Shown here piece by piece: positions 19,337 through 55,076 of a stretch of 64,000 bases of DNA. The stretch covers positions 1-64,000 of the forward strand of contig JANNVX010000004.1 of the NCBI GenBank assembly GCA_031414595.1, in the 5' to 3' direction. Both the position numbers and the translations under genes were made by a program. Position 1 is the first letter of the stretch. Every line of letters starts with the position of its first letter. The notes below the pieces were generated by a model. That model ran no database searches and was not told the origin of the DNA. It worked only from the letters and a program-made list of their open reading frames with translations. This DNA comes from Deinococcales bacterium. Lineage in GTDB: Bacteria > Deinococcota > Deinococci > Deinococcales > JAAFIG01.

Positions 19337-19378
19337 CTTTGTGATTTTTACTTGCTAGAATTGCCCGCGAGGTTAATC

Positions 19379-21136
19379 GTGAACAGTCTCTTTCAAATCA
19401 GTCGTTATACTTTAGGCGTTCTGCTTTGTACCATTTTTGTTGCCTGTACTTCGCTCCAGACAAGCGAACCGAGCAGAGAATTTATTCTGACTGTTAATTT
19501 AATTGCAAATGACACCGAGCAAGGCTTAATAAGTCGTTATGGTGGCAATCTGCTTTCTTTTAACCCAAAAGCAGGGTATGCAGTTCTAAAAGTAAATACA
19601 CCACCAGTCAGCACCGATTTGGCAGTCAAGCACCTCGAGCCAAATATTAAAATTGGTTCTACCGACGCTAAAATTAGTCTTGACCGTCCAAACATCACCA
19701 CCCAAGGCGCAAGCACCGGCATGGCTAGTGTTGGTATGAGTGGTTGGGCTACATGGTCAAGTGGTTGGGCTACATGGTCAAGTGGCGAGACACTTCCGCG
19801 TATGCCTCTGCAAACCAGTGGTGTTTATATGAATTCTCGAGTTCCACAAGCCCATGCGATTGCCCGTAATTTTGGGGCTGGTGTGATTGTGGCTGTTTTG
19901 GACACGGGTGTAGACGTATATCACCCAGGGATTTTTGGGCGTTTAATCGAACCTACCAAGCGTTGGAATTTTGTGGACAATAATAATAATGTCAATGAAA
20001 TCAGTGGAGGCGCAGGGTACGGACACGGTACAGCTGTGACTGGCATTGTTTTACAGGTTGCCCCCAAAGCCACAATCATGCCACTTAAGGTTTTAGATGC
20101 AAATGGGGCTGGCGACTTAGACAACGTGATTGCTGCGATTGACTATGCGGTCAAAAATGGCGCTCGAGTAATCAATATCTCTTTGGGTTCACATCAATTT
20201 TCAGATGCCCTATGGACAGTGATTAACAATGCCATCGAAAATAAAGTTTATGTTGTGGCGGCTGTAGGAAACGAAGGGCAATCTAATTCCGCCGATTACC
20301 CGGGGGCGCTAGGCTATAGACGACCAGGTTATATGGTTGGGGTTGGCAGTGTCAATGCTGACGACCAATTGTCGAGCTTCACCAATCGTGGCGGAGATGT
20401 GTTTATGTACGCTCCGGGTGAAAATGTTCCAACTTTAGCCCCAAATTTCCAAACTGCTAATGCCACAGGTACTTCGTTTTCCACACCTCTGGTGGCGGGA
20501 GCATTGGCTTTGGCTTATGGTGAAGCCACAACTTCAGAAGCCCGAGAAGGTATTGGCAATACATTATGGAATTCTAACGAGCGAAATCGTTTATGGTGGC
20601 GATTTTATAGAAATGCGTTCATTTGTGACCTTTTAGGCAATACTTGGTGTCATAGCGAAGGTGGACTCGACGTTGAAAGGTTACTTTTGCAAATGTCTGG
20701 TTTTGTCCCGGCAGTCCAAAAAAGCACCGTGGACTTTATTCGCAATGGCAACTTTGAACTTGGTGGGTTACAAGGTTGGACATCCTCTAGTTTTGTTGGC
20801 TATGACTACAACTCATTTTCAGGGGATTACGCGGCGGCAATTTATGGCACAGGCAACCTTAGCCAAAAAATAACTGGCTTAACCCCAAACACCACTTATC
20901 GCTTAACCGGGTGGACGCAAGTGAATAGACTGACTTCTTCGGTTCGTTTTGCGGTTCGTAACTTTGGTGGGACTTCGGTCATTGCTTCTAGTAATCAATT
21001 TAGTTTTGGGAATCTAAAACCACTCAGTCTAATCTTCACCACAGGTTCGTCGAGTACCACGGCTGATGTCGTGATTGAAAAAACTTTAGGAAAAGATATA
21101 GGTTGGATTGATCTTGTGACCCTCACCCGCAACTAG
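19379..21136 (+). CDS. S8 (subtilisin-like) serine peptidase lipoprotein with a C-terminal carbohydrate-binding-like domain
   Basis: Triad motifs VLDTG, HGTAV and GTSFS; lipobox FVAC; C-terminal NGNFE..W domain. Confidence 0.9.
   Translation: MNSLFQISRYTLGVLLCTIFVACTSLQTSEPSREFILTVNLIANDTEQGLISRYGGNLLSFNPKAGYAVLKVNTPPVSTDLAVKHLEPNIKIGSTDAKISLDRPNITTQGASTGMASVGMSGWATWSSGWATWSSGETLPRMPLQTSGVYMNSRVPQAHAIARNFGAGVIVAVLDTGVDVYHPGIFGRLIEPTKRWNFVDNNNNVNEISGGAGYGHGTAVTGIVLQVAPKATIMPLKVLDANGAGDLDNVIAAIDYAVKNGARVINISLGSHQFSDALWTVINNAIENKVYVVAAVGNEGQSNSADYPGALGYRRPGYMVGVGSVNADDQLSSFTNRGGDVFMYAPGENVPTLAPNFQTANATGTSFSTPLVAGALALAYGEATTSEAREGIGNTLWNSNERNRLWWRFYRNAFICDLLGNTWCHSEGGLDVERLLLQMSGFVPAVQKSTVDFIRNGNFELGGLQGWTSSSFVGYDYNSFSGDYAAAIYGTGNLSQKITGLTPNTTYRLTGWTQVNRLTSSVRFAVRNFGGTSVIASSNQFSFGNLKPLSLIFTTGSSSTTADVVIEKTLGKDIGWIDLVTLTRN
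19739..19785 (+). repeat. 21-bp in-frame tandem repeat (SGWATWS x2) in the S8 gene
   Basis: AGTGGTTGGGCTACATGGTCA repeated twice, then AGTGG. Confidence 0.9.
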
Positions 21137-21165
21137 GCAACCCAAGACCCTCAAGGCGAAACCAT

Positions 21166-22218
21166 ATGACTAATCAAAGCCAAATTCAGGAACTCAATCA
21201 AACGGCTTGGCAATTGCGCCACACTGACCGTAAGGCTTGCGAAACACTCAGTCGCCAAGCTCTAGAATTGGCTGAATCGAGCAACGATAAAATCGGTCAA
21301 GGTTTTGCCTTGCGCTCCCTCGCTCATTGCTGTGTTACAACTGGACAACCCGAACAAAGCCTTGAATTACTAACCCAAGCCCTCGAGATAGCCCAAACCC
21401 AACAAAATCAGCTACTCGAGCGTGACTGCCTAAATTTGCTGGCAGGGGTTCATAACTGGTTTGGTGATTTAGAACGGGCTGTTGGTCTGGTCAGCCAAGC
21501 CTACCGCCTGAGTATGCTCCTACAAGACGATGCCCAAATTAGCTCATGCTTAAACAACATCAGTCTGATGTACCACCAACTCGGTCAAAACCTGACTGCC
21601 CTCGAGTACGCCCAAGAAGCCATTCAACAAGCCGCCAACACGGGCGACCAAGTACGTGAGGCTATCGCCCTGTCAAATGCAGCCTTGGCATTAAGTGGAT
21701 TATCCCAATTTGCAGAAGGTTTAAGCGCAATCGAAAAATCACAAACCTTCTGTCAAGAACTTGGTCTCGAGGAATTACAACTCCGCAACCGAGTCAACCG
21801 AATCGAAATCTTGATTGGCTTAGAAAACCTTGCAGAAGCCCAGTCCGAAGTGAGTCAATGCTTAGAAATAGTACGCAGCCTTGATATTGCCGAAGGCGAA
21901 GCCCAGTGTTTGCTGCTGCAAAGCCAGATTCATCTAGCCCAAGCCAATTATAGCCAAGCCCAACAAACCGCAAGTCTTGCCCTCGAGATTGCACGCACCG
22001 CTAAAATGCGTGGACTAGAAGCCAAAATTTGTTCTGAACTTGCCCAAGCCAATAAAGGCTTAGAGCAGTATGCCATTGCCCTCGAATACACCGCCCAAGC
22101 CCAAGCCATCGAAGCCGAAATGCGAACCGAAGGCGCACACCGTCGGATGCGAACCTTATCTAAACTCAATCTGGTGGATCGGCTCGAGAGTTTACTGCGC
22201 TTGGAGCGGGTTAGTTAA
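21166..22218 (+). CDS. Stand-alone tetratricopeptide repeat protein
   Basis: Successive ~40-aa MalT/RRNPP-like TPR units with no recognisable output domain. Confidence 0.85.
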   Translation: MTNQSQIQELNQTAWQLRHTDRKACETLSRQALELAESSNDKIGQGFALRSLAHCCVTTGQPEQSLELLTQALEIAQTQQNQLLERDCLNLLAGVHNWFGDLERAVGLVSQAYRLSMLLQDDAQISSCLNNISLMYHQLGQNLTALEYAQEAIQQAANTGDQVREAIALSNAALALSGLSQFAEGLSAIEKSQTFCQELGLEELQLRNRVNRIEILIGLENLAEAQSEVSQCLEIVRSLDIAEGEAQCLLLQSQIHLAQANYSQAQQTASLALEIARTAKMRGLEAKICSELAQANKGLEQYAIALEYTAQAQAIEAEMRTEGAHRRMRTLSKLNLVDRLESLLRLERVS

Positions 22219-24423: not shown

Positions 24424-25047
24424 ATGAAAATCATTTCTTTGATGCGCGAACCAATCAACACCATCACCCACGGAATCGGTGCGGTTATGGCACTTCTTTT
24501 TACAATCCTGATGCTGGTTTTATCAAACGGCAACTGGATTAACTTGGTGTTTGGCGTAAGCATGATGGTTTGTTACATCGCCAGTACCCTGCACCACGGC
24601 ATACGCTCGAGTGAAAAAATTGAAGAATGGCTGCGCCGCCTTGACCACAGCGCTATTTACTTACTGATTGCTGGAACGTATACCCCAGTTTTATGGCATG
24701 TTCTCGAGGGCGAGACCCGTTTGTACTGGTTACTTGGCGTTTGGGGTGTGGCAGCTTTTGGTGTGCTGCTGAAAACCTTGACCAGACCACCCGAATGGTT
24801 TTCCTTAACAATTTACATCGGCATGAGTTGGTTCGCCATTATTTTACTGCCCAAGTTTATCGCTGGCTTACCATTGGCTGCCTTCATCGCCTTGGTGATT
24901 GGTGGGCTTTGCTACACCCTAGGTGTACCGTTTTATGCTCTAGGCAGACGGGTTCTCAAAAAAGGTTTATGGACATCCCATGAAATCTGGCATTTATTTG
25001 TACTGGCGGGCAGTGTTAGCCATTTTGTGATGGCAATCAATCTCTAA
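24424..25047 (+). CDS. Hemolysin III family (PAQR) membrane protein
   Basis: N.ITH, STLHH, RRLDHSAIYLLIAGTYTP and HEIWH. Confidence 0.93.
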   Translation: MKIISLMREPINTITHGIGAVMALLFTILMLVLSNGNWINLVFGVSMMVCYIASTLHHGIRSSEKIEEWLRRLDHSAIYLLIAGTYTPVLWHVLEGETRLYWLLGVWGVAAFGVLLKTLTRPPEWFSLTIYIGMSWFAIILLPKFIAGLPLAAFIALVIGGLCYTLGVPFYALGRRVLKKGLWTSHEIWHLFVLAGSVSHFVMAINL

Positions 25048-26689
25048 GCTGAGGACGGGTACAATTACGCCCAGCGTTCTTGGCGGAGTACATCGCTCGG
25101 TCAGCAATTTCAAAGAGCTTATTTTGATGCGCCACAGAAACATCGTCACACCAACCTAAACTGATTGTCACGCTTAAATCAGGGTGAATATCGGTCATGT
25201 CGGTACGGGCAATCACCTCCCGAATTCGTTCGCATAAACGGTAAACCGCTAAACCACCAATTCCGGGCAGAATTAAAGCAAATTCCTCACCACCATAGCG
25301 AGCCACCAAATCATGACTTCGGCACTGCTCAGATAAAATTTTGGCGATGCGTTGCAGCACCAAATCCCCAGCAGCATGTAAATACTTATCATTGACCAAC
25401 TTAAAATGATCGATGTCGAGCAAAACAATGCTCAGTTTAGAACGGGTTTCGGTGGCTTCTAAAAAAACTCGAGCCACAAAGGTTTCTAAAGTGCGGCGAT
25501 TGGCTAACCCAGTCAGGGAATCCTCGCTGGCTTGACGATCCAATTGCACATTTAAGCGGGTTAATTCCTCAGAACGCTGCTGATACCACAGGGCTTCACG
25601 GCGCACATTCTCACGTTCTATTTTAACCGCCAAAGCCTGAGATTGCCGTTCGGCACTTTCGGAACGCACCAACGAATCGAATTTATGAAACATTTCAAGA
25701 TGCTGTAAGGCTAACTCAAACTCAGAACGAGCCTTAAAAACCTTATAAAATTCTTTATGGACATCCGACAGGTATTTTTTAGCCGTATTGACTTCAAAAT
25801 GGGCTTTTGCTTGACTTAAATGTCCTAACGCCGCCTCGAATTGGCGTTGCAGTGCAAAAACCCGTCCAAATTGCAATTCGCATTCACCCAAAGACTCGAG
25901 CGACCCATAACGCTGGGCATGAACCATCCCTTGCCCAACTGCCAATTCTGCTGCCACAAAATCTTCTAAACCAGACATGATTTTAGACTGAATAATATAG
26001 GCTTCGGATAGTGTTGCCTGATCATCCGCCCGAATCAAATAAGTCAAAGCCAATTCGAGATGACCCAAGGCAAGCCTAAAATCCTCTTCTTTGGTTGGCT
26101 GATTTTTTTCTTCAATGATGGCATTGGCTAATGCCATTAGCGCACCACCCTCGGCTCGAGTCCGCCCCATTTTTTGCGCCAAAATAATTGCTTGATTGGC
26201 ATAATCAAAAGCAAAACTCCAATTTTTTAAGCACCGATGGGTCTGACTTAAGTAAATTAAGCTGGCTAAACGTCCACCATCAATGCCATGGGTATTGGCG
26301 ATTTCTAAGGCTTCTTCAAAAATACTTAAAGCATCAGAAAAGTCGCCCAAGTCTTGGTAAACCACGCCAATTTCCATCTGACACGCCAAGGCATTTGAAA
26401 AAGCACCATGCAAAAAATAAGTATCACAGGCTAAAAATAAATTTTTTAGCGCATTTTTAACATCAGACCCTCGAGCATGAACCTTACCAATCATTCGTAA
26501 GCCAAACGCATGAACTCGAGGGTTATCGTTGATTGAAAATTTCAATAACGCCTCACCAAGTTCACGCTGTTCTTCTTTGGTGCTTTCAGCAAACTCGATA
26601 TACACCGTATTGGTCAATAGCCGAATATCCTCATCAGATAAAATCTGCCGAAAACGATTGACGGCACTTTGAACATTAGTTTTCATCAT
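25037..26689 (-). CDS. TPR-containing diguanylate cyclase (GGDEF)
   Basis: N-terminal TPRs, coiled coil, DSLTGLANRR, DIDHFK.VND, I-site RSHD, active site GGEEF. Confidence 0.93.
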   Translation of the reverse strand: MMKTNVQSAVNRFRQILSDEDIRLLTNTVYIEFAESTKEEQRELGEALLKFSINDNPRVHAFGLRMIGKVHARGSDVKNALKNLFLACDTYFLHGAFSNALACQMEIGVVYQDLGDFSDALSIFEEALEIANTHGIDGGRLASLIYLSQTHRCLKNWSFAFDYANQAIILAQKMGRTRAEGGALMALANAIIEEKNQPTKEEDFRLALGHLELALTYLIRADDQATLSEAYIIQSKIMSGLEDFVAAELAVGQGMVHAQRYGSLESLGECELQFGRVFALQRQFEAALGHLSQAKAHFEVNTAKKYLSDVHKEFYKVFKARSEFELALQHLEMFHKFDSLVRSESAERQSQALAVKIERENVRREALWYQQRSEELTRLNVQLDRQASEDSLTGLANRRTLETFVARVFLEATETRSKLSIVLLDIDHFKLVNDKYLHAAGDLVLQRIAKILSEQCRSHDLVARYGGEEFALILPGIGGLAVYRLCERIREVIARTDMTDIHPDLSVTISLGWCDDVSVAHQNKLFEIADRAMYSAKNAGRNCTRPQLRD

Positions 26690-26721
26690 AAATAAAAGAG
26701 GTTTGGGACATGCCCAAACCT
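26690..26721 (-). terminator. Terminator-like hairpin between the peptide gene and the TPR-GGDEF gene
   Basis: Minus strand AGGTTTGGG-CATGT-CCCAAACCT followed by CTTTTATTT and then the GGDEF ATG. Confidence 0.7.
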
Positions 26722-26739
26722 AAAAGACCTTTATTAAAT

Positions 26740-26916
26740 CTAGCAATCTCCATTACAAAAACCCTTGGCTTTCGGTTTAGACGGTTCTGGTGAATCTGGT
26801 GGGTCTTGATACGCGCCGACTTCTGCTCTATCCCAACGATCACCTTTTGCCAATGCTGCTGGTAATGCAATTAAGCAAAACGCTAAACCAATTCCGAATA
26901 GCAACCTTTTAATCAT
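26740..26916 (-). CDS. Small secreted peptide precursor (58 aa), absent from the ORF track
   Basis: MIKRLLFGIGLAFCLIALPAALA-KGDRWDRAEVGAYQDPPDSPEPSKPKAKGFCNGDC*; GGGGG SD 6 nt upstream; Sec-type signal peptide with an ALA cleavage site. Confidence 0.8.
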   Translation of the reverse strand: MIKRLLFGIGLAFCLIALPAALAKGDRWDRAEVGAYQDPPDSPEPSKPKAKGFCNGDC

Positions 26917-26943
26917 TTTGTACCCCCGTTATAGTTCTTATAC

Positions 26944-26991
26944 CTTACCAAGTAAATACTTACAAAGACCTTACTAAAAAATTTTGTAAGA
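26944..26991. promoter_or_regulatory. CTTAC-rich operator candidate upstream of the peptide gene
   Basis: CTTACA(26959)-N20-TGTAAG(26985) plus extra CTTAC copies; resembles 19305-19334. Confidence 0.5.
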
Positions 26992-27089
26992 ATTACAATC
27001 CCATTGTTTCAGACAACAAGAATAAGAACTGATTGGATTTGCAAAAAATAATGTGAGAGACTTTATAAAAACCATGCCGCCATATCAAC

Positions 27090-27117
27090 TTGACACCAGA
27101 CAACAAAAGGCTATACT
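27090..27117 (+). promoter_or_regulatory. Promoter of the T-box leader
   Basis: TTGACA-16 bp-TATACT. Confidence 0.8.
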
Positions 27118-27123
27118 CGAGAC

Positions 27124-27375
27124 GGGAAGAGTACCGAGTAAAAGCCCCCACAGAGAAGTGTTCCATAAGCTGAGAAGAACACTGGGAAAGCCGCAAGGGA
27201 ACGTCACCCAAGCAACACCGAGGAAAGAAAGCCTAACCGCAATTAGAATCCTCTGGGTGCGCCCATCACAGCGCGTTTGAGCGCTCGAGACAACTCGAGA
27301 AAAGCGGTGGTAACGCGGGAGCGATTTTTTTCAAAAAACGCCATCTCGTCCGCAGATTTTACGGACGAGGTGTTT
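27124..27375 (+). ncRNA. T-box riboswitch, valine specifier
   Basis: AGTA/GAA specifier loop with GTC at 27203-27205; CAGAGA AG bulge; GCTGAGA distal loop; T-box GCGG-TGGTAAC-GCG (27304-27317) able to pair with CGTCCGC; competing hairpin CATCTCGTCCG/CGGACGAGGTG (27342-27372). Confidence 0.9.
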
Positions 27376-28332
27376 ATGTTCACAAAGTATGCCAATTTTG
27401 AAACCGCCCAAGCCCATGCCAAACAGAACGGTACTCGAGAACGTGTGGTGTGTTACATCACCAGAGGACTCGAGTTACTGGTTTTTCTTCACGAAGCCAA
27501 GTACCCAACGGCTGGAATTCAAGTTCCAGCCGGCGGACTCGAGGCAGGGGAGAGCATTTTTGAAGCTGCTATCAGGGAAGCCTTTGAAGAGACTGGTTTA
27601 CAGAACCTCGAGATTAAAACACACCTTGGTTCTGGACTGTACAAAAATGGCAAAAGGCACGAAATTTGGCATTTTGTCTGGCTAACGCTAGGGCAGGGCG
27701 AGGCATACTGTCTTGACCCTAAAGATGCACCTGTCGGGCTGGGTCGCCTCGCCCCTACGGTGAATGAATGGCAACATTTTGCTGAAAATAAATACACTTT
27801 TTACTGCCGTTTTGAACTGCTCGAGAATGTGGTTTTGCATTACGATATGGATGCTATGCTGCCCGAACTAGCACAGCGGCTTGGACTCGAGTTGCAAAGT
27901 CGGCAAACAAAGCCTCGCTCTGTTGCGATTTGTTACATCACACGCGGTTCGGAAATCCTGACTTTTAGCGGACATCCAGACGGCGGTATTGGCATACCTG
28001 CTGGTGGCATTGAAGACGGCGAAACGCCATTAGAAGCTGCCATGCGTGAAATTCTTGAGGAGAGCGGGCTGAGTCTCGAGAATCCGATTTACCTTGGACG
28101 GCAAGATTATTATTTTAAGGGGCAGCACCCAGAAAATGGTACGCCGCTCGAGTTTCTTGAGGACAGGTATTACTATTGGTTTAAGACACTCGAGCCGAGG
28201 GATTCTTGGGAGTGGGTTGTGTCGGATGGTGTTGGCGATAAGGGCAAGGTTTTTAAGCATTCGTTTGTGCCGCTCGAGGAAGCAAAGATTGATTGGGAAA
28301 TGGATGAGTTTATGGGAGAACTTAAGCAGTAG
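27376..28332 (+). CDS. Tandem NUDIX hydrolase
   Basis: Two Nudix boxes (GGLEAGESIFEAAIREAFEETGL; GGIEDGETPLEAAMREILEESGL); contains an in-frame REP-derived insert. Confidence 0.9.
   Translation: MFTKYANFETAQAHAKQNGTRERVVCYITRGLELLVFLHEAKYPTAGIQVPAGGLEAGESIFEAAIREAFEETGLQNLEIKTHLGSGLYKNGKRHEIWHFVWLTLGQGEAYCLDPKDAPVGLGRLAPTVNEWQHFAENKYTFYCRFELLENVVLHYDMDAMLPELAQRLGLELQSRQTKPRSVAICYITRGSEILTFSGHPDGGIGIPAGGIEDGETPLEAAMREILEESGLSLENPIYLGRQDYYFKGQHPENGTPLEFLEDRYYYWFKTLEPRDSWEWVVSDGVGDKGKVFKHSFVPLEEAKIDWEMDEFMGELKQ
27696..27758 (-). repeat. GTAG-type REP carrying a 39-bp internal insertion, in frame in the Nudix gene
   Basis: Minus strand GTAGGGGCGAG[39 bp]GTATGCCTCGCCC, the same arms as the purL REP. 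Confidence 0.8.
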
Positions 28333-28373: not shown

Positions 28374-28820
28374 ATGAACCAAAATTTGATCATCACAGAT
28401 GAATTTTCGAATCCAGATTCCGAAATGGAATACCTAAGTGATTATCCTTTAGATGCCAAAGCTCGAGCCAATGCCGAACAGTGCTGGCAATGCGGTGGTT
28501 GCTCGTATTTTTCACCATTTACTACAAGTTATGGTTTGTGTCACAACCAAAATTCAAGGCATTATCTCGAAACTGTTTTTGAGCATTTTACCTGTGCTGT
28601 TATTGATATTGAATCGTGGGAATACCATAGTTTTGGTGCTGGAGAAATCACAACTGAAATTCCAGAAAATGAATTGGATGCAAATGTTTGGGAAGCTGCC
28701 AAAAATGCGGTGCTTGCGTTGAAATCACATTATCCAGATGGTGAATCACATGATGCTGTTAAACTGGTTTATAGAGTTTTAGACAACAAAGTCAAATTTG
28801 TTCTTGAAAAGAAATTCTAG
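28374..28820 (+). CDS. Cys-rich hypothetical protein (DUF3027-like)
   Basis: QCGGCSYF...YGLC.N..S.....VFEHFTC pattern. Confidence 0.65.
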   Translation: MNQNLIITDEFSNPDSEMEYLSDYPLDAKARANAEQCWQCGGCSYFSPFTTSYGLCHNQNSRHYLETVFEHFTCAVIDIESWEYHSFGAGEITTEIPENELDANVWEAAKNAVLALKSHYPDGESHDAVKLVYRVLDNKVKFVLEKKF

Positions 28821-28860
28821 AGCCAAAGCATCAGGCTCGAGCCTCGAGAAAGAAGGAATC

Positions 28861-30789
28861 ATGAACCAAATTTCTATTGACAAAGCCGCCACAATTATGG
28901 GTGTTTCCTCTGCGACCATCAGAAATTGGGTCAAAGCTGGACTGATAGAGCCTATCAATGCGCGTCCTATCGCTTTTTCCGAAGAAAGTGTGGCGCTCTT
29001 AAAAAATCAAGTCTCGAGTGGTGCGCTACAAAAATTACAAACCAGAGCCAATAAAGCCCAATCGAAAAATGATTTTATTCCGCTCGAGTACAATTCAAAT
29101 TCTGGTTTTATCAGTATCTTAAACACCATTTTAGAACAATTTAAGAACCATTCTTTAGCCATTGAACCGCTTTTATTTTTAGCTGCTCTTTGTTGTCTCG
29201 AGCAGAATAGCGAACTCAAACGCCCAATTCAATCAGATGTTTTTGATTTGACCCAAGCAGAATTTACTCGAGTTTTGGTTAGACAAGAAATACTTGGCTG
29301 GCGAACTTCTCTGGGGGAAATAACCCATAAGGAACGTTACAAGGATATTTATGACTTACTTTTTACCAAAGACACAGAAGATTTACTGGGGATTTTATAC
29401 CAGTCTTTACGCAGCGAAGGCAATAAATCGAATTTGGGTTCGTATTACACCCCAACGCATTTGGTGCAAGATGCCTTACAATCTGTTCGGCTCGAGACGG
29501 TCAGTAATTTCCTAGACCCTTGTTGTGGCACTGGAAAATATTTAATCGAGGCAGCAAAAACTTTTTCTTTGCCACCAGAATCTATTTATGGTTTTGATAT
29601 TGACCAATTGGCTGTACAGATAGCCCGTGTCAATCTGCTGATGCACTATAAAAAAGCAGAATTTTCCCCCAATATTTTTTGTCTGGATGCACTTTCTGAC
29701 TTAGCCAATGGAGACTTTTTTTGCACCACAAATCACCTGATGGGGTTTTTTGATTTGATTGCCACCAATCCACCTTGGGGAGCGTATAAAAACTCGAGTA
29801 TTCCAGTTCAGTTTCAGAATGTCCTCGAGTCCAGCGAAACCTATTCGATGTTTATTCTCAAATCCATGCAATTGCTGAAAAAAAGTGGAGCGCTTTCTTT
29901 TATTTTGCCTGAATCTATTCTAAAAATCCGAACTCACAGCGACATTCGAGAATTTATTGTTAAAAACAGTACAATGATAAAAATAATTCAACTCGGACGA
30001 CAATTTAGTGGGGTTTTTACACCAGTTGTTCGCTTAGATTTGAAAAATGAAATCCCAAACAACAATATGCTTGAACTGCATGACGAAAATAAATTGGTTA
30101 CTCGAGTTGGTCAAAACAGATTTCTATACAATACCGATTATATTTTTGATACTCGAGTAGATGATACCGTAGAAGCCTTAATTCAAAAAATTTATGCAAA
30201 ACCGCATTTGACTTTACAGGGTCATTCAGAGTGGGCGCTTGGGATTGTCACAGGCGATAACACTAAGTATTTACTCGAGCAGCCAACTCCCACTGCCGAA
30301 GCCATTTATAGAGGCATGGATATTAGCCCTTTTTACTTAACTGCTGCAAAAACATTTATCGAATTTACGCCAAGCCAGTTCCAACAAGTCGCTCCAGAAC
30401 GGTTTTTTAGAGCAGATGAAAAACTGATTTACAAATTTATTTCAAAGAAATTGGTTTTTGCATTCGATGATACCCAAGCCCTAACGCTAAACAGCGCCAA
30501 TATCCTGATTCCAAAATTGCCGAACATGAGCATCAAAGTTACAATGGCATTTTTGAACTCGAGTGTATTTCAGTTCTTATTTACCAAAAAATTCGCCACC
30601 CATAAGGTGCTGCGTGGAGACCTTGAAAAATTACCATTCCCGAATCTCGAGCCAGATGTCCACAATCAACTCGAGCAGCTTTTAGATAATGTGCTGGAAA
30701 CAAAAATAGTGAGCGCAGAAATAGACAATTTGATATTTCAGATTTTTGAACTCACCCAAGAAGAAATAGATTTGATAGAGGGGACATAA
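28861..30789 (+). CDS. Type II N6-adenine DNA methyltransferase (gamma class, TaqI-C-like specificity domain) with an N-terminal HTH
   Basis: GSYYTP, LDPCCGTG, NPPW, FILPES and LGIVTGDN; N-terminus GVSSATIRNWVK; AAGGA RBS before ATG 28861. Confidence 0.9.
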   Translation: MNQISIDKAATIMGVSSATIRNWVKAGLIEPINARPIAFSEESVALLKNQVSSGALQKLQTRANKAQSKNDFIPLEYNSNSGFISILNTILEQFKNHSLAIEPLLFLAALCCLEQNSELKRPIQSDVFDLTQAEFTRVLVRQEILGWRTSLGEITHKERYKDIYDLLFTKDTEDLLGILYQSLRSEGNKSNLGSYYTPTHLVQDALQSVRLETVSNFLDPCCGTGKYLIEAAKTFSLPPESIYGFDIDQLAVQIARVNLLMHYKKAEFSPNIFCLDALSDLANGDFFCTTNHLMGFFDLIATNPPWGAYKNSSIPVQFQNVLESSETYSMFILKSMQLLKKSGALSFILPESILKIRTHSDIREFIVKNSTMIKIIQLGRQFSGVFTPVVRLDLKNEIPNNNMLELHDENKLVTRVGQNRFLYNTDYIFDTRVDDTVEALIQKIYAKPHLTLQGHSEWALGIVTGDNTKYLLEQPTPTAEAIYRGMDISPFYLTAAKTFIEFTPSQFQQVAPERFFRADEKLIYKFISKKLVFAFDDTQALTLNSANILIPKLPNMSIKVTMAFLNSSVFQFLFTKKFATHKVLRGDLEKLPFPNLEPDVHNQLEQLLDNVLETKIVSAEIDNLIFQIFELTQEEIDLIEGT

Positions 30790-39791: not shown

Positions 39792-42700
39792 TTAATCTGA
39801 AGGTGAATCACTGAGCGACAGCATCACATCTCGAGCCAAAACACCAATGGGTGAAGCAATATACTGAGGACAAAGTAATGCCAGTCTTGCCTCGTTTTCG
39901 GGAGTCCTTGGTTGCAAAACAAGTTCTATAAATTTTATAAATTCTCGAGTCAGTTCTGCCGTCAGATTTGGGTCGGTTGCAACTCCATCAAGCACCTGTT
40001 TTATGGCGGTATCATCTTGTAAACCCAAGCGCCAACCTGCATGAACTCGAGCCAAAGCCCAATGCCAATCAGCTTCATCTAATTCTACAGATGTCATGTC
40101 CCAAACCTTTTGATAATCACCAAAAGACAGCGCCAGCAACGCTTGCGTTAGCTGATAGTACCCATAGCCATAGTCCTCTTTTGCAATTTCAGGCACTTGC
40201 AACACAAAACCGTCGCCTAACTCGACGGTGATGCGTGTTTCCCAAACTCGGGCTACTTTCTCCAATGAATGCTCACGCACTTTTTCCATTTCAGTTCTGG
40301 CTTCTATCAGTTGATTTTTTCCGTATAAACAATTTGCCCGATTGTAAATTGCGTACTTTTCGAGACTTTGCATTCCTATTCGTTGTGCTAACTGGATGGC
40401 ACGTTCAAGTGTTTGAATCGCGTTATCAAAATCTGTATCCTGCATAAGAATAAGTGCCTTATTGACATCTATAATCACCAAAATACGAATATTGCTAACA
40501 ATTTCAGCGAATTTCGCGGCATTTTCCCAAGCTGAAAAAGCCTCTGCTCGAAAATTTGCACTGTAATAAGCGACTCCTAATTCATTCCACACCACAGAAA
40601 GTAAATAATGATTGCCTGTCACTTCTGCCACCTTAGTAGCCATTTGGATAATGCTAATTTTTCGTTTTTTTGGTTGAATAACAACTGATAGAACAGACAA
40701 AGCATTAACCAAATCTTCTTTATTTTTTTGTTTCTTAGCAGCCTCAACAGCTTCTAAGGCATAGAATCGTGCTTTTATTAAATCTTTTTGTACTAAAAGT
40801 AAGCTCAAGTTTGCACAAAGCAGCGTATACAATGGTTCTTCTTTTTTTGGTTCACCAATAAGCTCGAGGGCATTTTGATTTTCACCTGTAAAGCGCATCA
40901 CTCGAACCAGTTCTACTTTGGCTCGAGCAATCAACTCGCCACTGTTGGGCAGCCATTGGGCGTGTTCAATCACATCGCGCCATAAATCTTGGGCTTCGCT
41001 GATTCGCCCAGCTGCACTCAATACCTCTCCTAAATGGTGCTTGGCTTGCATCCGCAAAAGCTGCTGGGCTTCGCTGGCGCTGTTATCGTTTTCTAAATGG
41101 GTGGCTGCCTCGAGAACCAAGCGGTAGGCTCGTTCGGCTTGTGGGTAAGCAAAAGTGGCTTGGGCGCTTAGTCCGGCTTGCATAGCAATTTCTAAGGCTT
41201 GCGGGTAGTTTTCGGCAGCGTACCAATGTTCGCCCAACTCGAGCAGTTCGGCTTTGCCCGTGCGTAACGTGGCAGCTTTGGCATGAAGGCGTTTGCGTTT
41301 TAAGCGCATGATGCCTTGGCGCAGCAGTTCGTTGTACATCGGGTGGGTGAACCTGAATCCTTCACCGTTTGTGCCGGGTGTTTCGGCAATCAGTCTGGCT
41401 CGAGAAAGGCTTTCTAAAGCATCTAAAGCGTCATCATCGCGCCAGTCAAGCATGGCGCGGGCATCTTCAAACCAAAAGGCTCTGCCTAAAATGCTGGCAG
41501 CACGGGCAAACTCGAGAACATTGGGGTCAAGCACTGCTAAACGGTGGGCGAGTAATTCGCCGAGGCTTTCGGGTAAGCCAGTTAAACTTCTGTTCCATTC
41601 GTAGACCTGGGCGCGGCGTTGAATTGCGCCGTTCTCGAGCATGGCTTTAAGCCGTTCCTCGAGTACCCAAGGGTTGCCGCCAGCGTGAGAGACCAATTCG
41701 TTTTCTAAAGCAGCTTCGATTTCACCACCGAGTAAGGCTTGTAGTAATTCAAACATCTGTTCGTCGGTTAGGGCGCTTAGAGCAATGGTTTTGCGTGGCT
41801 TGGGGAATCCTTTGGGGCTTTGCTGCCCTTCGGGTAAGTCCTCGAGTCGGTAGGTGATAATCACTCGGGCATCTGGCGCGGCTCGAAGCGCGTGGGCAAG
41901 CAGCGCAAGGGTGCTTTCGTCTGCCCAGTGGAGGTTTTCAAAAGCAACTACGGTCAGGCTCGAGATGCGTTCTAAAAGCTCGGTAAAGGCTTCAAATAAG
42001 CGCAATCGGGCAACTTCGGCAGGGATGTTCGGGTCTGAAGGCGGGGCTGCACCAAATTGTGAGGCAATGCGGGCGAGTTCATTTTGTGAAGTTGGCGAAA
42101 CTTCATCAAAAATAAAGCGGTAATGTTTTTCTAAGTTTTCAATTAAGCGTTTGACCGTACCAAATGGGGTCGGGTCATCCGCAATCGCTTCGCCGATGCC
42201 AAGCCGAGCGCCAGAACTCTGGGCGCGTTCGCCGAGGGCGCGAAGCAGACGAGTTTTGCCAGTGCCAACATCGCCAATAACCGTGTACAAGCCAGTTAAA
42301 CCCGTTTCAAAAAGTCCAGCCAAGGTCTCGAGTTCGGTTTCTCGTCCAATCAAAGGCGAAAGCAACAGCGCGTCGGCTCGAGCCGATTGCGCCTGCATCT
42401 GAATGGTTTGGCTTAATGGGGATTCTAAGGCACGAAGCAGCGCTTCGCGCACCGCTTCGGCGCTGCTTGGGCGTTCGGCTGGGTTTTTGGACAACATGGC
42501 GAGGCAAATGTTCTCGAGGGCTTCAGGGATGGCTGGATTGCGGGTCGTGGGCGGAACGGGGGCTTGTTGGATGTGCTGCATAATCACTTGAACAATGCTG
42601 TCGCCTAAAAATGGCGGTTGCCCAGTCAATGCCCAGTACAGCACTGCGCCTAGGGCGTATAAATCGGCACGGTAATCGAGTTGAGCGCCTCTGCACTGCT

Positions 42701-43223
42701 CGGGTGCCATGTAGAGGGCTGTGCCAACCATAGCGCCGACTTTGGTCAGGGCAACCGTGCCTTCCATGGTTTTTGCCAGTCCAAAATCCATTAACTTGGG
42801 TTGTCCGTCGGTGGTGACGCGAATGTTTTCTGGTTTTAAGTCGCGGTGAATCACCCCTTGGGCATGAACTGCGCCTAGCGCCCCAGCGATGCCGACAAAA
42901 ATTCTTGTAATGGTTGGAAAATCTGGGTTTGTGCCAAGCCAATCGGATAAATCCTGACCTTTAATAAATTCCATCACCAAAAATGGCATACCGCGTTCTT
43001 CGCCTAGCTCGAGAACCCGCACCACATTAGGATGATCTATTTGCGACAAACTGCGGAACTCGCGGCGCATTCGAGCGCCACCAGTTAAAGCCACCATCTC
43101 GTGCATTTTTTTGATGGCGACCAATGTGCCAGTCTCGGTGTCCATGGCGAGCGTGACCTGACCCATTGCTCCAGCCCCGAGTTCACGGACAAACTGGTAA
43201 CGCTGGTTTGAAGCCACGGTCAT
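39792..43223 (-). CDS. Ser/Thr protein kinase fused to an AAA/STAND-like ATPase and TPRs
   Basis: GAGAMG, HRDLKPEN, DFG, YMAPE; P-loop GDVGTGKT; ENLHWAD; GGNP; C-terminal TPRs. Confidence 0.92.
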   Translation of the reverse strand: MTVASNQRYQFVRELGAGAMGQVTLAMDTETGTLVAIKKMHEMVALTGGARMRREFRSLSQIDHPNVVRVLELGEERGMPFLVMEFIKGQDLSDWLGTNPDFPTITRIFVGIAGALGAVHAQGVIHRDLKPENIRVTTDGQPKLMDFGLAKTMEGTVALTKVGAMVGTALYMAPEQCRGAQLDYRADLYALGAVLYWALTGQPPFLGDSIVQVIMQHIQQAPVPPTTRNPAIPEALENICLAMLSKNPAERPSSAEAVREALLRALESPLSQTIQMQAQSARADALLLSPLIGRETELETLAGLFETGLTGLYTVIGDVGTGKTRLLRALGERAQSSGARLGIGEAIADDPTPFGTVKRLIENLEKHYRFIFDEVSPTSQNELARIASQFGAAPPSDPNIPAEVARLRLFEAFTELLERISSLTVVAFENLHWADESTLALLAHALRAAPDARVIITYRLEDLPEGQQSPKGFPKPRKTIALSALTDEQMFELLQALLGGEIEAALENELVSHAGGNPWVLEERLKAMLENGAIQRRAQVYEWNRSLTGLPESLGELLAHRLAVLDPNVLEFARAASILGRAFWFEDARAMLDWRDDDALDALESLSRARLIAETPGTNGEGFRFTHPMYNELLRQGIMRLKRKRLHAKAATLRTGKAELLELGEHWYAAENYPQALEIAMQAGLSAQATFAYPQAERAYRLVLEAATHLENDNSASEAQQLLRMQAKHHLGEVLSAAGRISEAQDLWRDVIEHAQWLPNSGELIARAKVELVRVMRFTGENQNALELIGEPKKEEPLYTLLCANLSLLLVQKDLIKARFYALEAVEAAKKQKNKEDLVNALSVLSVVIQPKKRKISIIQMATKVAEVTGNHYLLSVVWNELGVAYYSANFRAEAFSAWENAAKFAEIVSNIRILVIIDVNKALILMQDTDFDNAIQTLERAIQLAQRIGMQSLEKYAIYNRANCLYGKNQLIEARTEMEKVREHSLEKVARVWETRITVELGDGFVLQVPEIAKEDYGYGYYQLTQALLALSFGDYQKVWDMTSVELDEADWHWALARVHAGWRLGLQDDTAIKQVLDGVATDPNLTAELTREFIKFIELVLQPRTPENEARLALLCPQYIASPIGVLARDVMLSLSDSPSD

Positions 43224-52657: not shown

Positions 52658-52758
52658 AAGTTTTAATTGATACTAATGTGCTAATTGCAGCCGTATTTTT
52701 GAATCATGAATGGAAAAAATTGAAAAACTCATTCATACACTTTAGAGATTACTTATGA
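52654..52758 (+). pseudogene. Truncated PIN/VapC toxin (N-terminal fragment)
   Basis: MKVLIDTNVLIAAVFLNHE... only 34 aa; overlaps the antitoxin stop (TTGA) and the purD start (ATGA). Confidence 0.8.
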
Positions 52759-55076
52759 AAAAACAAAACATCCTGATTATTGGAAGCGGCGGACGTGAAC
52801 ACGCGATTGCATGGAAGGTCTTACAAAGCCCTCGAGTTAAAAAAGTCTTTGTTGCCCCCGGAAATGGTGGCACAGCCTCGAGTGCAAAACTCGAGAATGT
52901 AGACATTAAAGCCATGGATTTTCCTGCCCTGCTCGAGTTTGCAGTTACTCAAAAGATTGATTTAACGATTATTGGACCAGACGACCCATTGGCGGCTGGA
53001 ATTGTGGACGTGTTTGAAGCACAGGGCTTACGGGTTTTTGGTGCAAGTAGGGCAGCTTCTAAGCTCGAGTGGAGCAAAGGTTTTGCCAAAACCATGATGC
53101 GGCAATGCAGTGTGCCAACTGCCGATTTTGCGGTTTGTACCAACTTAGAGGACGGCTTAGAATTGGTACGCGATTTTCCATTTAGCACTGAGGGCTTTGT
53201 GATTAAAGCCGATGGTTTAGCACTGGGCAAAGGCGTGTTGATTTGCGACACAGTGCAACAAGCCGAATATGCTTTAGAACAAATGTTTAGTGGTGCTTTT
53301 GGCGAAGCTGGACAAACTGTGGTGATTGAACAGCGCTTATTTGGGCGTGAAGTTAGTGCTTTATGTTTTTGTGATGGCAAAATTGCTAAAATGATGCCAC
53401 CTGCAAGGGATCATAAACGGGCTTTGAATGGTGATAACGGACTGAACACGGGTGGTATGGGCGCATACGCCCCAGCCCCAGACATCAGTGCTGCCTTGCT
53501 CGAGGAAATACGGGTTAGGGTGGTACAACCCATTTTAGAGGGTATGGCAGCCCGAGGCGAACCGTTTACGGGTGTTTTGTACCCCGGTATCATGCTGACC
53601 GAAAACGGCATCAGTGTGCTTGAATTTAACGCCCGATTTGGCGACCCAGAAACCCAAGTGCTACTCCCGCTTCTCGAGACGGACTTGCTCGAGATTATAG
53701 ATGCTTGTATAGATGGCACACTGCATAACCTCGAGCCAATTTGGAAAAAAGAATCTTGTGCGACGGTCGTGATGGCAAGTGGTGGTTATCCAGAAAAGTA
53801 CGAAACTGGTTTTGAAATTCTGGGACTAGGGGCAGTGCCAAAGGATGTGATGGTCTTTCATGCGGGGACAAAACTCGAGCAGAAAAAAATCGTCTCGAGT
53901 GGTGGACGGGTTTTAAGTGTCAGTGCTACGGGCAAGAATCTCGAGGAAGCACTGCATAAAGCCTATTCTGGGGTTAAACAGATTTCGTTTCGTGAAGCCC
54001 ATTATCGCACCGATATTGGACAAACTCTCTCCCCCAAAGAACAAGAGAGGGGAGCAACTGATGCTTATGCTGGGGCTGGGGTGAACATTGCCGAAGGAAC
54101 TCGAGCCGTGGCACTGATGCAGGACGCGGTACGTTCGACCCATGATGCTCGAGTGGTGGCTGGGGTTGGGGCATTTGGTGGGGTCTTTGACATTTCAAGC
54201 CTCAAGAATATGCAGCGTCCATTGTTGGTTGCCAGTACCGACGGGGTAGGCACAAAAACAATGGTGGCGGCTCAAATTGGCAATTGGACTGGGATTGGTG
54301 CTGATATTGTCAATCATGGGATTAACGATATTCTGGTTCAGGGCGCAAAACCACTTTTTTTCTTAGATTATATTGCGGCTAACAAATTACAAGCCGAATG
54401 GGTCGCCAGTATTGTCTCGAGTATGGCAGAGGCTTGCCGTGCTGCCAATTGCGTGATTTTGGGCGGCGAAACCGCCGAGATGCCTGGAGTCTATAAAACA
54501 GGTGAATCGGATGTGGCTGGGACAATGGTCGGTGCTTTAGAACATGGAAACCTAATAGATGGCACTCGAGTTGAGGTCGGCGATTGTATTTTAGCGCTGC
54601 CCTCGAGTGGTTTACACACCAATGGGTATAGTTTGGCTCGAAAAACGCTGTCTGGGTTATCTTGGACAAAACCTCGAGCCGATTTAGAAAGCATGACCAT
54701 AGGCGAAGCCCTGCTGATGCCGCACCGTTCGTACTTAGACCATATTAACGCCCTCGAGGAAGCTGGAATAGACATTCGGGCAATGGCACACATCACAGGC
54801 GGGGGACTCTGGGACAACATTCCGCGTACCCTGCCAAAAGACAAAGCCGCATGGATTAAACGCGGTACTTGGCGCATTCCAAGTATTTTTAAGTTAATTC
54901 TCGAGCGGGCAAAACTAAGTGAATACGACGCATATCACGCTTTTAACATGGGTGTTGGGATGACTGTGATTATCCCAGAGAATCAACTTGTACAAGCCCT
55001 CGAGATTCTAGGCGATGATGTGTTTTTGATTGGCGAAATTATCCCTCGAGCCAGCCAAAGTGTGGTGTTGCAATGA
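52755..55076 (+). CDS. purD: Bifunctional phosphoribosylamine--glycine ligase / AIR synthetase (PurD-PurM fusion)
   Basis: GSGGREHA, NTGGMG and RFGDPETQ (PurD); YAGAGVNI, STDGVGTK, GGETAEMP and SSGLHTNG (PurM). Confidence 0.95.
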   Translation: MKKQNILIIGSGGREHAIAWKVLQSPRVKKVFVAPGNGGTASSAKLENVDIKAMDFPALLEFAVTQKIDLTIIGPDDPLAAGIVDVFEAQGLRVFGASRAASKLEWSKGFAKTMMRQCSVPTADFAVCTNLEDGLELVRDFPFSTEGFVIKADGLALGKGVLICDTVQQAEYALEQMFSGAFGEAGQTVVIEQRLFGREVSALCFCDGKIAKMMPPARDHKRALNGDNGLNTGGMGAYAPAPDISAALLEEIRVRVVQPILEGMAARGEPFTGVLYPGIMLTENGISVLEFNARFGDPETQVLLPLLETDLLEIIDACIDGTLHNLEPIWKKESCATVVMASGGYPEKYETGFEILGLGAVPKDVMVFHAGTKLEQKKIVSSGGRVLSVSATGKNLEEALHKAYSGVKQISFREAHYRTDIGQTLSPKEQERGATDAYAGAGVNIAEGTRAVALMQDAVRSTHDARVVAGVGAFGGVFDISSLKNMQRPLLVASTDGVGTKTMVAAQIGNWTGIGADIVNHGINDILVQGAKPLFFLDYIAANKLQAEWVASIVSSMAEACRAANCVILGGETAEMPGVYKTGESDVAGTMVGALEHGNLIDGTRVEVGDCILALPSSGLHTNGYSLARKTLSGLSWTKPRADLESMTIGEALLMPHRSYLDHINALEEAGIDIRAMAHITGGGLWDNIPRTLPKDKAAWIKRGTWRIPSIFKLILERAKLSEYDAYHAFNMGVGMTVIIPENQLVQALEILGDDVFLIGEIIPRASQSVVLQ

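Follow-up and report, generated by a model that had tools for sequence, protein, structure and literature searches.

We analyzed a 64,000-nucleotide (nt) stretch of DNA from a Deinococcales bacterium (contig JANNVX010000004.1, positions 1 to 64,000 of the forward strand; hereafter the window) and found on its minus strand a two-gene cassette, in which a small gene for a 58-amino-acid (aa) predicted exported peptide stands directly upstream of a gene for a predicted cytoplasmic TPR-GGDEF protein (hereafter the cyclase). The small gene is kept beside the cyclase gene in every orthologous locus that we recovered, and the end of the peptide appears to travel with the beginning of the cyclase when the region is exchanged between strains. 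The reading we favor, with slightly less than even confidence, is that the pair is a peptide-receptor cassette that resembles the RRNPP systems without belonging to the RRNPP family, and that its output is cyclic di-GMP (c-di-GMP). Somewhat more tentatively, we put forward as one joint claim that this is a pheromone system outside Bacillota, in an uncultured low-GC lineage of Deinococcales: the TPRs of a cytoplasmic cyclase would read an exported Cys-loop tail, pherotypes would be exchanged, and the system would have arisen independently of RRNPP from an LGN-like scaffold, with the peptide coupled directly to c-di-GMP, no kinase or transcription factor intervening.

A conserved small gene precedes the cyclase gene

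The small open reading frame (ORF) runs from an ATG at 26916 to a stop codon at 26742..26740 (minus strand) and encodes MIKRLLFGIGLAFCLIALPAALAKGDRWDRAEVGAYQDPPDSPEPSKPKAKGFCNGDC. Six nt 5' of the ATG there is a Shine-Dalgarno-like GGGGG (26923..26927, minus strand, found by eye), and the alignment has a G-run at this place in six of six loci. The first 23 residues (MIKRLLFGIGLAFCLIALPAALA; 26848..26916) form a predicted signal peptide. On inspection, K and R residues are followed by an uncharged hydrophobic stretch and then by A-L-A, after which cleavage is predicted by the -3/-1 rule. All the features of a Sec and signal peptidase I substrate (a basic n-region, an uncharged hydrophobic h-region and small residues at -3 and -1) were found, as assessed by a crude heuristic of our own and by inspection of alignments, on which all of our signal-peptide calls are based. 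Of all ORFs in the window that start with ATG and encode 40-100 aa (156 in number), 2 passed the heuristic, one of them the 58-aa ORF, and so did 11 of the 11 database relatives tested.

The predicted mature part begins with a charged and Pro-rich pro-region (residues 24-45; 26782..26847, minus strand), of which alignments show at least two sequence types across the peptide family. It ends with a C-terminal tail (residues 46-58, SKPKAKGFCNGDC; 26743..26781, minus strand), which is the proposed ligand part. In the tail, a basic K-P-K-x-K stretch leads into x-[FYLW]-C-G/N-x-x-C. No other ORF of the window that starts with M and encodes 30-150 aa has a C-x(3,4)-C ending. An earlier note, made from the sequence alone, had described this 58-aa ORF with a good Shine-Dalgarno sequence, a Sec-type signal peptide and a CxxxC ending, and each of these was found again in our analysis.

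To find relatives of the cassette, we scanned species-representative genomes, with the N-terminal 380 residues of the cyclase as the confirmation sequence. The scan gave five loci (L001-L005), all from Deinococcales or Deinococcota metagenome-assembled genomes, with cyclase N-terminal identities to the window of 92, 86, 81, 67 and 43%, respectively. These affiliations support placing the window in Deinococcota. In all five (six of six with the window), a small ORF lies on the same strand directly 5' of the cyclase ortholog, as the earlier note had expected of homologs, and it ends 53-70 nt before the cyclase start. Each of these ORFs has a G-rich ribosome-binding site, a predicted signal peptide and a Pro-rich middle, and ends in K-x-[FYW]-C-x3-C (C-x4-C in L005). 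As in the window, there is one M-start ORF of 30-150 aa with a C-x(3,4)-C ending per locus.

Identity of the peptides to that of the window goes down to 36-39%, with the reading frame, both Cys residues and several Pro and Lys residues preserved. Both tail Cys residues are invariant in 11 of 11 aligned family members. A profile search of 1.84 billion representatives returned 7 proteins at an expectation value (E) of 1e-3 or less, all with a common layout, and a word-indexed search returned 13 relatives at E<=1, giving a family of 13-14 members in the database searches, with the layout common to every sequence that we inspected. Pfam and NCBIfam had no family for the peptides of the window, L002 and L005, and a look-alike search of the ESM Atlas with the peptide gave a top score of 0.78, which is under the lead level. 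Among the three closest copies (window, L001 and L003), the ratio of nonsynonymous to synonymous change (dN/dS) in the mature part is 0.35-0.5. Judging from its conservation, the small ORF is a real, conserved gene.

The part of the gene that encodes the signal peptide has changed very little. Its 69 nt differ at 0-2 positions among the same three copies (dS 0-0.06), compared to a dS of 0.26-0.69 for the mature part and 0.32-0.51 for the TPR region. The near absence of synonymous change in this module suggests either constraint at the nucleotide level or a recent sweep.

Two other readings of the peptide were considered and set aside. A Cys in the h-region raised the possibility of a lipoprotein, but this Cys is absent in L005 and in the database relatives P0130, P0132 and P0134, and the residues that precede it do not fit a lipobox. 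A bacteriocin or other ribosomally synthesized and modified peptide does not fit the window, which has no adjoining modification, export or immunity genes, and the mature part would be unsuited, being acidic and Pro-rich and not amphipathic.

The peptide tail and the receptor N-terminus vary as a unit

We compared the loci for mosaic structure using maximum chi-square. In the comparison of the window with L003, a 400-nt block (26781..26382) stands out with 48% mismatch, compared to 6.7% elsewhere; it reaches from the final ~13 codons of the peptide gene across the spacer into the cyclase gene, of which it takes in the initial ~101 codons. In the comparison with L002, the divergent block is a neighboring one (27081..26772; 53% mismatch, compared to 12.3% elsewhere) that takes in the promoter region and the initial ~48 codons of the peptide gene. 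The junctions in the two comparisons lie near peptide codon 45-48, just 5' of the K-P-K-x-K stretch and the Cys tail. For this reason the peptide gene appears to consist of two modules, and the tail module appears to stay with the receptor N-terminus.

The same division is seen in the proteins. Residues 111-549 of seven close cyclase orthologs are 81-96% identical, and residues 1-110 fall into two types. The type I N-termini (window, L001, L002, which is database protein P0006, and P0008) are 69-90% identical to each other, and those of type II (L003, which is P0007, P0009 and P0010) are 77-85% identical, compared to 40-45% identity between types. The types are incongruent with the backbone: in the remainder of the protein, identity is 96% between the window and L003 and 90% between P0008 and P0010, pairs that each combine the two types. 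Within type I (window-L001 and window-L002), the TPR domain has a dN/dS of 0.09-0.12, indicating purifying selection.

The tails can be sorted by the type of the receptor. The type I tails are FCNGDC, FCGGDC, YCGSDC and LCGSEC, with C-x-[GS]-[DE]-C in four of four, and the type II tails are FCGEGC in both pairs with a known peptide. Two of these six pairs rest on pairing inferred from contigs: P0126 (peptide) and P0008 (cyclase) are each on a single contig of length 6468, and P0132 (peptide) and P0010 (cyclase) are each on a single contig of length 10875. Taken together, the sequence comparisons support inheritance of the peptide tail and the N-terminal TPRs of the receptor as one hypervariable unit.

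The cyclase has a peptide-wrapping type of TPR scaffold and an intact GGDEF domain

The cyclase ORF (26689..25037, minus strand) encodes 550 aa with Pfam matches to GGDEF and TPR_12. A second ATG at 26686 is perhaps the true start, and most orthologs have 549 aa. Neither a signal peptide nor a membrane segment was seen in the protein (the highest Kyte-Doolittle mean over 19 residues is 1.18). We modeled residues 1-380 with AlphaFold2 (AF2) from a 59-row alignment, and obtained a predicted local distance difference test score (pLDDT) of 92.5 and a predicted template modeling score of 0.87. The model has 17 helices, 16 paired and one long. The hypervariable N-terminal TPR helices (H1-H6 of the model, residues ~1-101; 26382..26689, minus strand) are followed by the rest of the TPR superhelix, which contains the TPR_12 match (to residue ~323; 25721..26381, minus strand). 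The long single helix (residues 324-379; 25553..25720, minus strand) links the TPR superhelix to the GGDEF domain, and its KIERENVRRE stretch is invariant among the cyclase orthologs.

The GGDEF domain (residues 388-542; 25064..25528, minus strand) was recognized with a Pfam E of 2.3e-38 (PF00990, 132 bits against a cutoff of 23.8) and by TIGR00254 (150 bits against 37.4, E 3.6e-44). The motif RSHD-LVARY-GGEEF contains an intact active site and, five residues upstream, an RxxD I-site. G465-F469, R456 and D459 are invariant in 11 cyclase orthologs, and the domain has a dN/dS of 0.05-0.09. With these motifs intact, the protein is predicted to synthesize c-di-GMP. A cytoplasmic TPR protein with a GGEEF site and an RxxD I-site was what the earlier note had read in the translation, and our analysis agrees on every part.

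We compared the TPR model to known structures with Foldseek. The top matches in the PDB were the TPR domains of LGN/Pins (E 4e-10, template modeling (TM) scores of 0.5-0.6), and the next were Rap proteins, several of them with bound Phr-type peptides (E 5e-7 to 9e-6, TM about 0.6). A sequence search against solved structures gave significant matches to Pins/LGN (E about 1e-5) and to designed consensus TPR proteins only. There were no matches in the cyclase to RRNPP-specific Pfam or NCBIfam models, and no helix-turn-helix match. By these comparisons, the scaffold is of the kind that wraps extended peptides.

The binding of the peptide by the TPR domain that the earlier note proposed was examined by predicting a complex of cyclase residues 1-380 and peptide residues 24-58, both entered as alignments of our own making, for which the calibration counts hold only roughly. 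The pair scored 0.59, compared to 0.19 for the best of three controls, with at least 41% of contacts shared between runs and a pLDDT of 42-48 for the partner. In the calibration, the mark was met by 58 of 80 solved complexes and by 2 of 110 mismatched pairs, and scores of 0.60 or less were found in only 7 of those 80 solved complexes and in both of the mismatches that passed. We take this prediction as weak support for binding of the peptide tail to the TPR domain.

The same score, and the same evidence for a unit of tail and receptor, would apply equally if binding occurred before export. TPR domains bind C-terminal tails in Hop and PEX5, and the TPR domain of the cyclase might likewise bind the free C-terminal tail of the unexported precursor, in which case the cyclase would report Sec load or precursor build-up and not cell density. 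Such sensing would require neither re-import of the peptide nor a switch between its oxidized and reduced forms. Still, the strong ribosome-binding site, the terminator and the classical cleavable signal peptide point to export, a housekeeping sensor of secretion would hardly be expected to diversify into types, and we found no precedent in the literature searched. We regard sensing of the precursor as quite improbable.

A terminator-like hairpin separates the two genes

Between the two genes there is a terminator-like hairpin (26721..26699, minus strand) of 9 pairs, 5 of them G-C, with a loop of 5 and the tail CTTTTATTTA. Its U-rich tract (26698..26690) abuts the cyclase ATG at 26689. This arrangement, which the earlier note had also reported, was found independently by our scan tool. 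The scan gave one site in the region compared to 1.3 expected from shuffled sequences, so the single site is not above chance, and the weight of the hairpin comes instead from its being kept across loci. A stable hairpin with a U-rich stretch is present in five of six loci (z -2.7 to -4.3 compared to shuffles), and those of L004 and L005 are built from sequences unrelated to that of the window. The spacer of L003, which lies within the exchanged block, has no stable hairpin (z 0.5). It is reasonable to suppose that the hairpin sets a high ratio of peptide to receptor.

How the cyclase gene is translated is less obvious. By eye, there is no recognizable ribosome-binding site in six of six cyclase genes, and the start codon directly follows the U-tract. 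There is also no convincing -10 element, by eye, for a cyclase promoter within the spacer or for a leaderless start. Coupling through read-through and a leaderless transcript are candidates for initiation.

The same features bring to mind a leader peptide acting in cis, as in the secretion-monitor leader peptides SecM, MifM and VemP. Translation or export of the small ORF would control read-through of the hairpin and hence expression of the cyclase, with the Pro-rich stretches or the conserved C-terminus as possible sites of ribosome pausing. The signal peptide, the Pro-rich region (PPPPPPPQPQ in L005), the conserved C-terminal motif and the position of the hairpin, between the stop codon and a downstream gene without a ribosome-binding site of its own, would all fit. 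However, the G-C core of the hairpin starts ~19-21 nt past the stop codon, which should be outside the reach of a terminating ribosome, the cyclase start codon is not within the hairpin, and L003 has no stable hairpin. A hairpin hiding a downstream ribosome-binding site, as in the SecM, MifM and VemP layout, was not found, the cyclase gene having no recognizable site to hide. The matched dimorphism of tail and receptor would also be left unexplained, and we consider control by a leader peptide very improbable.

A proposed mechanism and the evidence against it

From the gene pair, its conservation and domain content, the predicted fold and the mosaic inheritance, we infer the following course of export, processing, re-import, binding and effect on the cyclase. 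With a strong ribosome-binding site and a terminator-like hairpin before the cyclase gene, the 58-aa product would be made in excess. It would be exported as a pro-peptide by Sec, and the signal peptide would be removed. The active part would be the C-terminal 7-13 residues, following K-P-K-x-K and ending in x-[FYLW]-C-x3-C, and an extracellular protease may release this tail. Presumably after re-import, the tail would be recognized in the cytoplasm by the N-terminal TPR helices of the cyclase. The occupied TPR superhelix would then signal along the long linker helix to the GGDEF domains, with a change in c-di-GMP synthesis as the outcome. By analogy with the TPR-GGDEF protein RcbB (see below), the peptide would activate the cyclase. 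Strains would carry alternative matched types of tail and receptor N-terminus, in the manner of pherotypes.

Several points weigh against this proposal. Re-import would need an oligopeptide permease, and none could be assigned within the 64-kb window. If the C-x3-C motif formed a disulfide extracellularly, it would be reduced again in the cytoplasm. We found no specific homology of the cyclase to RRNPP receptors, with an E of 0.22 for NprR by sequence. The complex score falls in a band in which, by the tool's own account, wrong predictions outnumber right ones unless the pairing already had good odds, and the fold of the partner is uncertain.

The genetic evidence has its own weak points. The association of tail with receptor type has a Fisher p of about 0.07, from six pairs that are not independent. 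The tail and the receptor N-terminus are ~60-100 nt apart, and linkage alone could explain their co-inheritance. L004 has an N-terminal type of its own (45-49% identical to type I), yet it has a type I-like tail, FCGSDC. How far peptides have diverged as a whole does not track how far their receptor N-termini have (Spearman 0.17, p 0.39). We therefore rejected the idea that the entire mature peptide and the receptor N-terminus simply diverge together; where peptide divergence correlates with other parts of the protein, it reflects phylogenetic background. Of the peptide/TPR covariation that the earlier note proposed as a check, the part that stands is the unit of tail and N-terminus, and the whole-peptide correlation does not.

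Adjacency of the two genes has low value as evidence because the whole region is syntenic in one lineage. An upstream block with a T-box leader (described below) is present in six of six loci, and genes for an HlyIII-family protein and xylose isomerase are found downstream in four of the five loci that reach far enough (the window, L002, L003 and L004 have them and L005 does not; L001 stops within the cyclase gene and is excluded from this downstream count). The pairing is also limited in its distribution. A tblastn search of plasmids for TPR-GGDEF proteins led us to fetch five regions, of which three (H2, H3 and H7, >1200 aa) were set aside as not comparable. There was no ORF with a signal peptide and a Cys tail upstream in either of the two comparable Deinococcus plasmid paralogs (L006 and L010; 24-29% identity), and a general rule of peptides accompanying Deinococcus TPR-GGDEF proteins was rejected on this basis. 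Because L006 and L010 lack the peptide ORF, we take the pairing, on present sequences, to be a trait of one ortholog group in a low-GC (about 46%) uncultured Deinococcales lineage.

The synteny, the paralogs without a peptide and the lack of correlation for the whole peptide would also be expected if the two genes were neighbors without a direct link. Any imported block takes in both the tail and the adjacent receptor N-terminus, and the shared block could be a local hot spot of recombination or divergence. The peptide would then be an exported mini-protein with an envelope, redox or metal-binding role through its C-x3-C, and the TPR of the cyclase would sense something else. Against this, the pair is retained in L005 although the downstream genes differ there. 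The spacing is tight (53-70 nt), the hairpin is conserved in structure, and the cyclase gene has no ribosome-binding site of its own. In addition, one site in the peptide gene is shared by two independent mosaic junctions, the tail is always found with the receptor end, and the deep dimorphism is centered exactly on the junction of the two genes. We consider it unlikely that the genes are neighbors only, and we continue to favor a peptide-receptor pair.

The promoter region and other features of the window

Upstream of the peptide gene we found by eye, on the minus strand, an inverted repeat, CTTACAAA (26990..26983) and TTTGTAAG (26966..26959). It overlaps a candidate -35 element, TTGTAA (26965..26960), and a candidate -10 element, TATAAG (26942..26937), follows 17 nt after the -35. 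The sequence TTGTAAG is invariant in the six-locus alignment. The scan tool did not list this candidate promoter, the last base of its -10 not being T. The inverted repeat may be an operator for some regulator.

The conserved nucleotide block further upstream was examined as a possible part of the cassette and rejected. It is a T-box leader (27110-27356, plus strand; RF00230, 61 bits against a cutoff of 93, E 5e-13) that is oriented divergently from the peptide gene and has the AGAGA and GGUGGUAACGCG boxes. A promoter-like TTGACA-16-TATACT (27090-27117, plus strand) is present at the leader. At gathering thresholds, there were no Rfam hits in the whole window. Next after the T-box comes an ORF that encodes two NUDIX domains (probable start near 27376, end 28332), an unusual partner for a leader of this kind. 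L001 and L003 have a 271-aa ORF, without a Pfam match, in the interval from the T-box to the NUDIX gene.

On the other side of the cassette, a convergent gene for an HlyIII-family membrane protein (24424-25047, plus strand) shares 11 nt (25037-25047) with the 3' end of the cyclase gene. An S8 subtilase with a lipoprotein-like N-terminus (..FVAC) and predicted export is encoded on the plus strand in the 19352-22218 region, and 30 nt after its gene there is a gene for a 350-aa TPR-only protein (21166..22218, plus strand). The two genes are 3-5.6 kb from the cassette (5.6 kb for the subtilase). Subtilases process Phr peptides in Bacillus; nothing links this one to the cassette.

Between 28000 and 32000, the GC content is 40-41%, compared to about 46-47% elsewhere, and this segment is possibly an island. 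It contains a gene for an N6-adenine methyltransferase of the Eco57I/TaqI_C type with an N-terminal MerR/HTH_17 motif (28798-30789) as well as ORFs without a family. Another TPR-based signaling protein, of 1143 aa with a Ser/Thr kinase domain, an AAA_16 ATPase and TPR repeats, is encoded at 39792-43223 (minus strand). At 52755-55076 (plus strand), within a purine-synthesis cluster, there is a 773-aa ORF that fuses GARS (purD) and AIRS (purM).

Comparison with known systems

To our knowledge, signaling by genetically encoded peptides that cytoplasmic TPR receptors sense is considered characteristic of Bacillota and their mobile elements. The known outputs of such receptors are transcription factors, phosphatases and anti-activators. 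For most GGDEF sensor domains, as far as we know, the signal is not known. If our proposal is correct, the logic of peptide and TPR-receptor signaling would extend to another phylum, and c-di-GMP signaling would gain a defined, genetically encoded ligand. The cassette would also be a compact two-gene system with natural specificity variants, of use for studies of ligand-receptor co-diversification and for orthogonal switches.

The cassette is like the RRNPP(A) systems (Rap/Phr, NprR/NprX, PlcR/PapR, Rgg/SHP, PrgX and AimR/AimP) in having a gene for a pro-peptide beside the gene for a cytoplasmic TPR receptor, in that its proposed active part is the C-terminal few residues of the pro-peptide, in the diversification of peptide and receptor into types, and in the Foldseek match to Rap structures, some of them peptide-bound. 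It differs in several ways. The effector is a C-terminal GGDEF domain, whereas RRNPP receptors have an N-terminal helix-turn-helix or helical bundle. The peptide gene is upstream, with a terminator-like hairpin in between, and in RRNPP systems it is usually downstream of the receptor gene or divergent from it. The cassette is in Deinococcota, and no specific homology was detected in sequence, Pins/LGN ranking above NprR. The earlier note had called the cassette an RRNPP-like module; this holds for the TPR superhelix and the adjoining predicted exported pro-peptide, and it fails for the type of effector, because of which we do not count the cassette as an RRNPP member. Membership is not shown by our comparisons, in which LGN/Pins also rank above Rap by modeled fold.

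Two studies of RRNPP systems, RRNPP_detector (PMC10075063) and a study of RRNPPA evolution (PMC9765709), focus on Firmicutes. The terms cyclase and Deinococc- are absent from the main texts of both, and GGDEF and c-di-GMP are absent from that of the former. In the open full-text literature searched, we found no account of a peptide gene paired with a TPR-GGDEF protein.

In the literature searched, the only characterized TPR-GGDEF protein that we found is RcbB of Vibrio vulnificus. [quoted passage not shown] Like the cyclase of the window, RcbB has an N-terminal TPR domain, with a GGDEF domain at its C-terminus, and the product of an upstream gene in the same operon relieves the TPR gate (PMC12282931). 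This likeness is one of domain layout. The partner RcbA is reportedly a folded cytoplasmic TPR protein, whereas the partner proposed here is a 58-aa predicted exported peptide. An RcbAB-type operon with a folded TPR partner was not found in the window, where the gene upstream of the cyclase is that of the peptide and the TPR-only ORF is 3 kb away. We considered that TPR-only protein (21166..22218) as an RcbA-like partner and rejected it, the similarity being weak and at the level of repeats (E 0.003) and there being no operon.

LGN/Pins (GPSM2) is the best match to the cyclase TPR domain both in sequence and in fold, and is an eight-repeat superhelix that wraps extended partner peptides. It is a eukaryotic polarity protein without a cyclase domain, and the likeness is limited to the kind of TPR scaffold.

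The agrBDC and comQXP loci use membrane histidine kinases, modified peptides and dedicated processing enzymes, and enzymes of this kind are absent from the cassette. They nevertheless show the pherotype pattern of a hypervariable signal and receptor segment. As in the cassette, the hypervariable segment covers part of the signal gene and the sensing part of the receptor, has conserved flanks, and is incongruent with the backbone.

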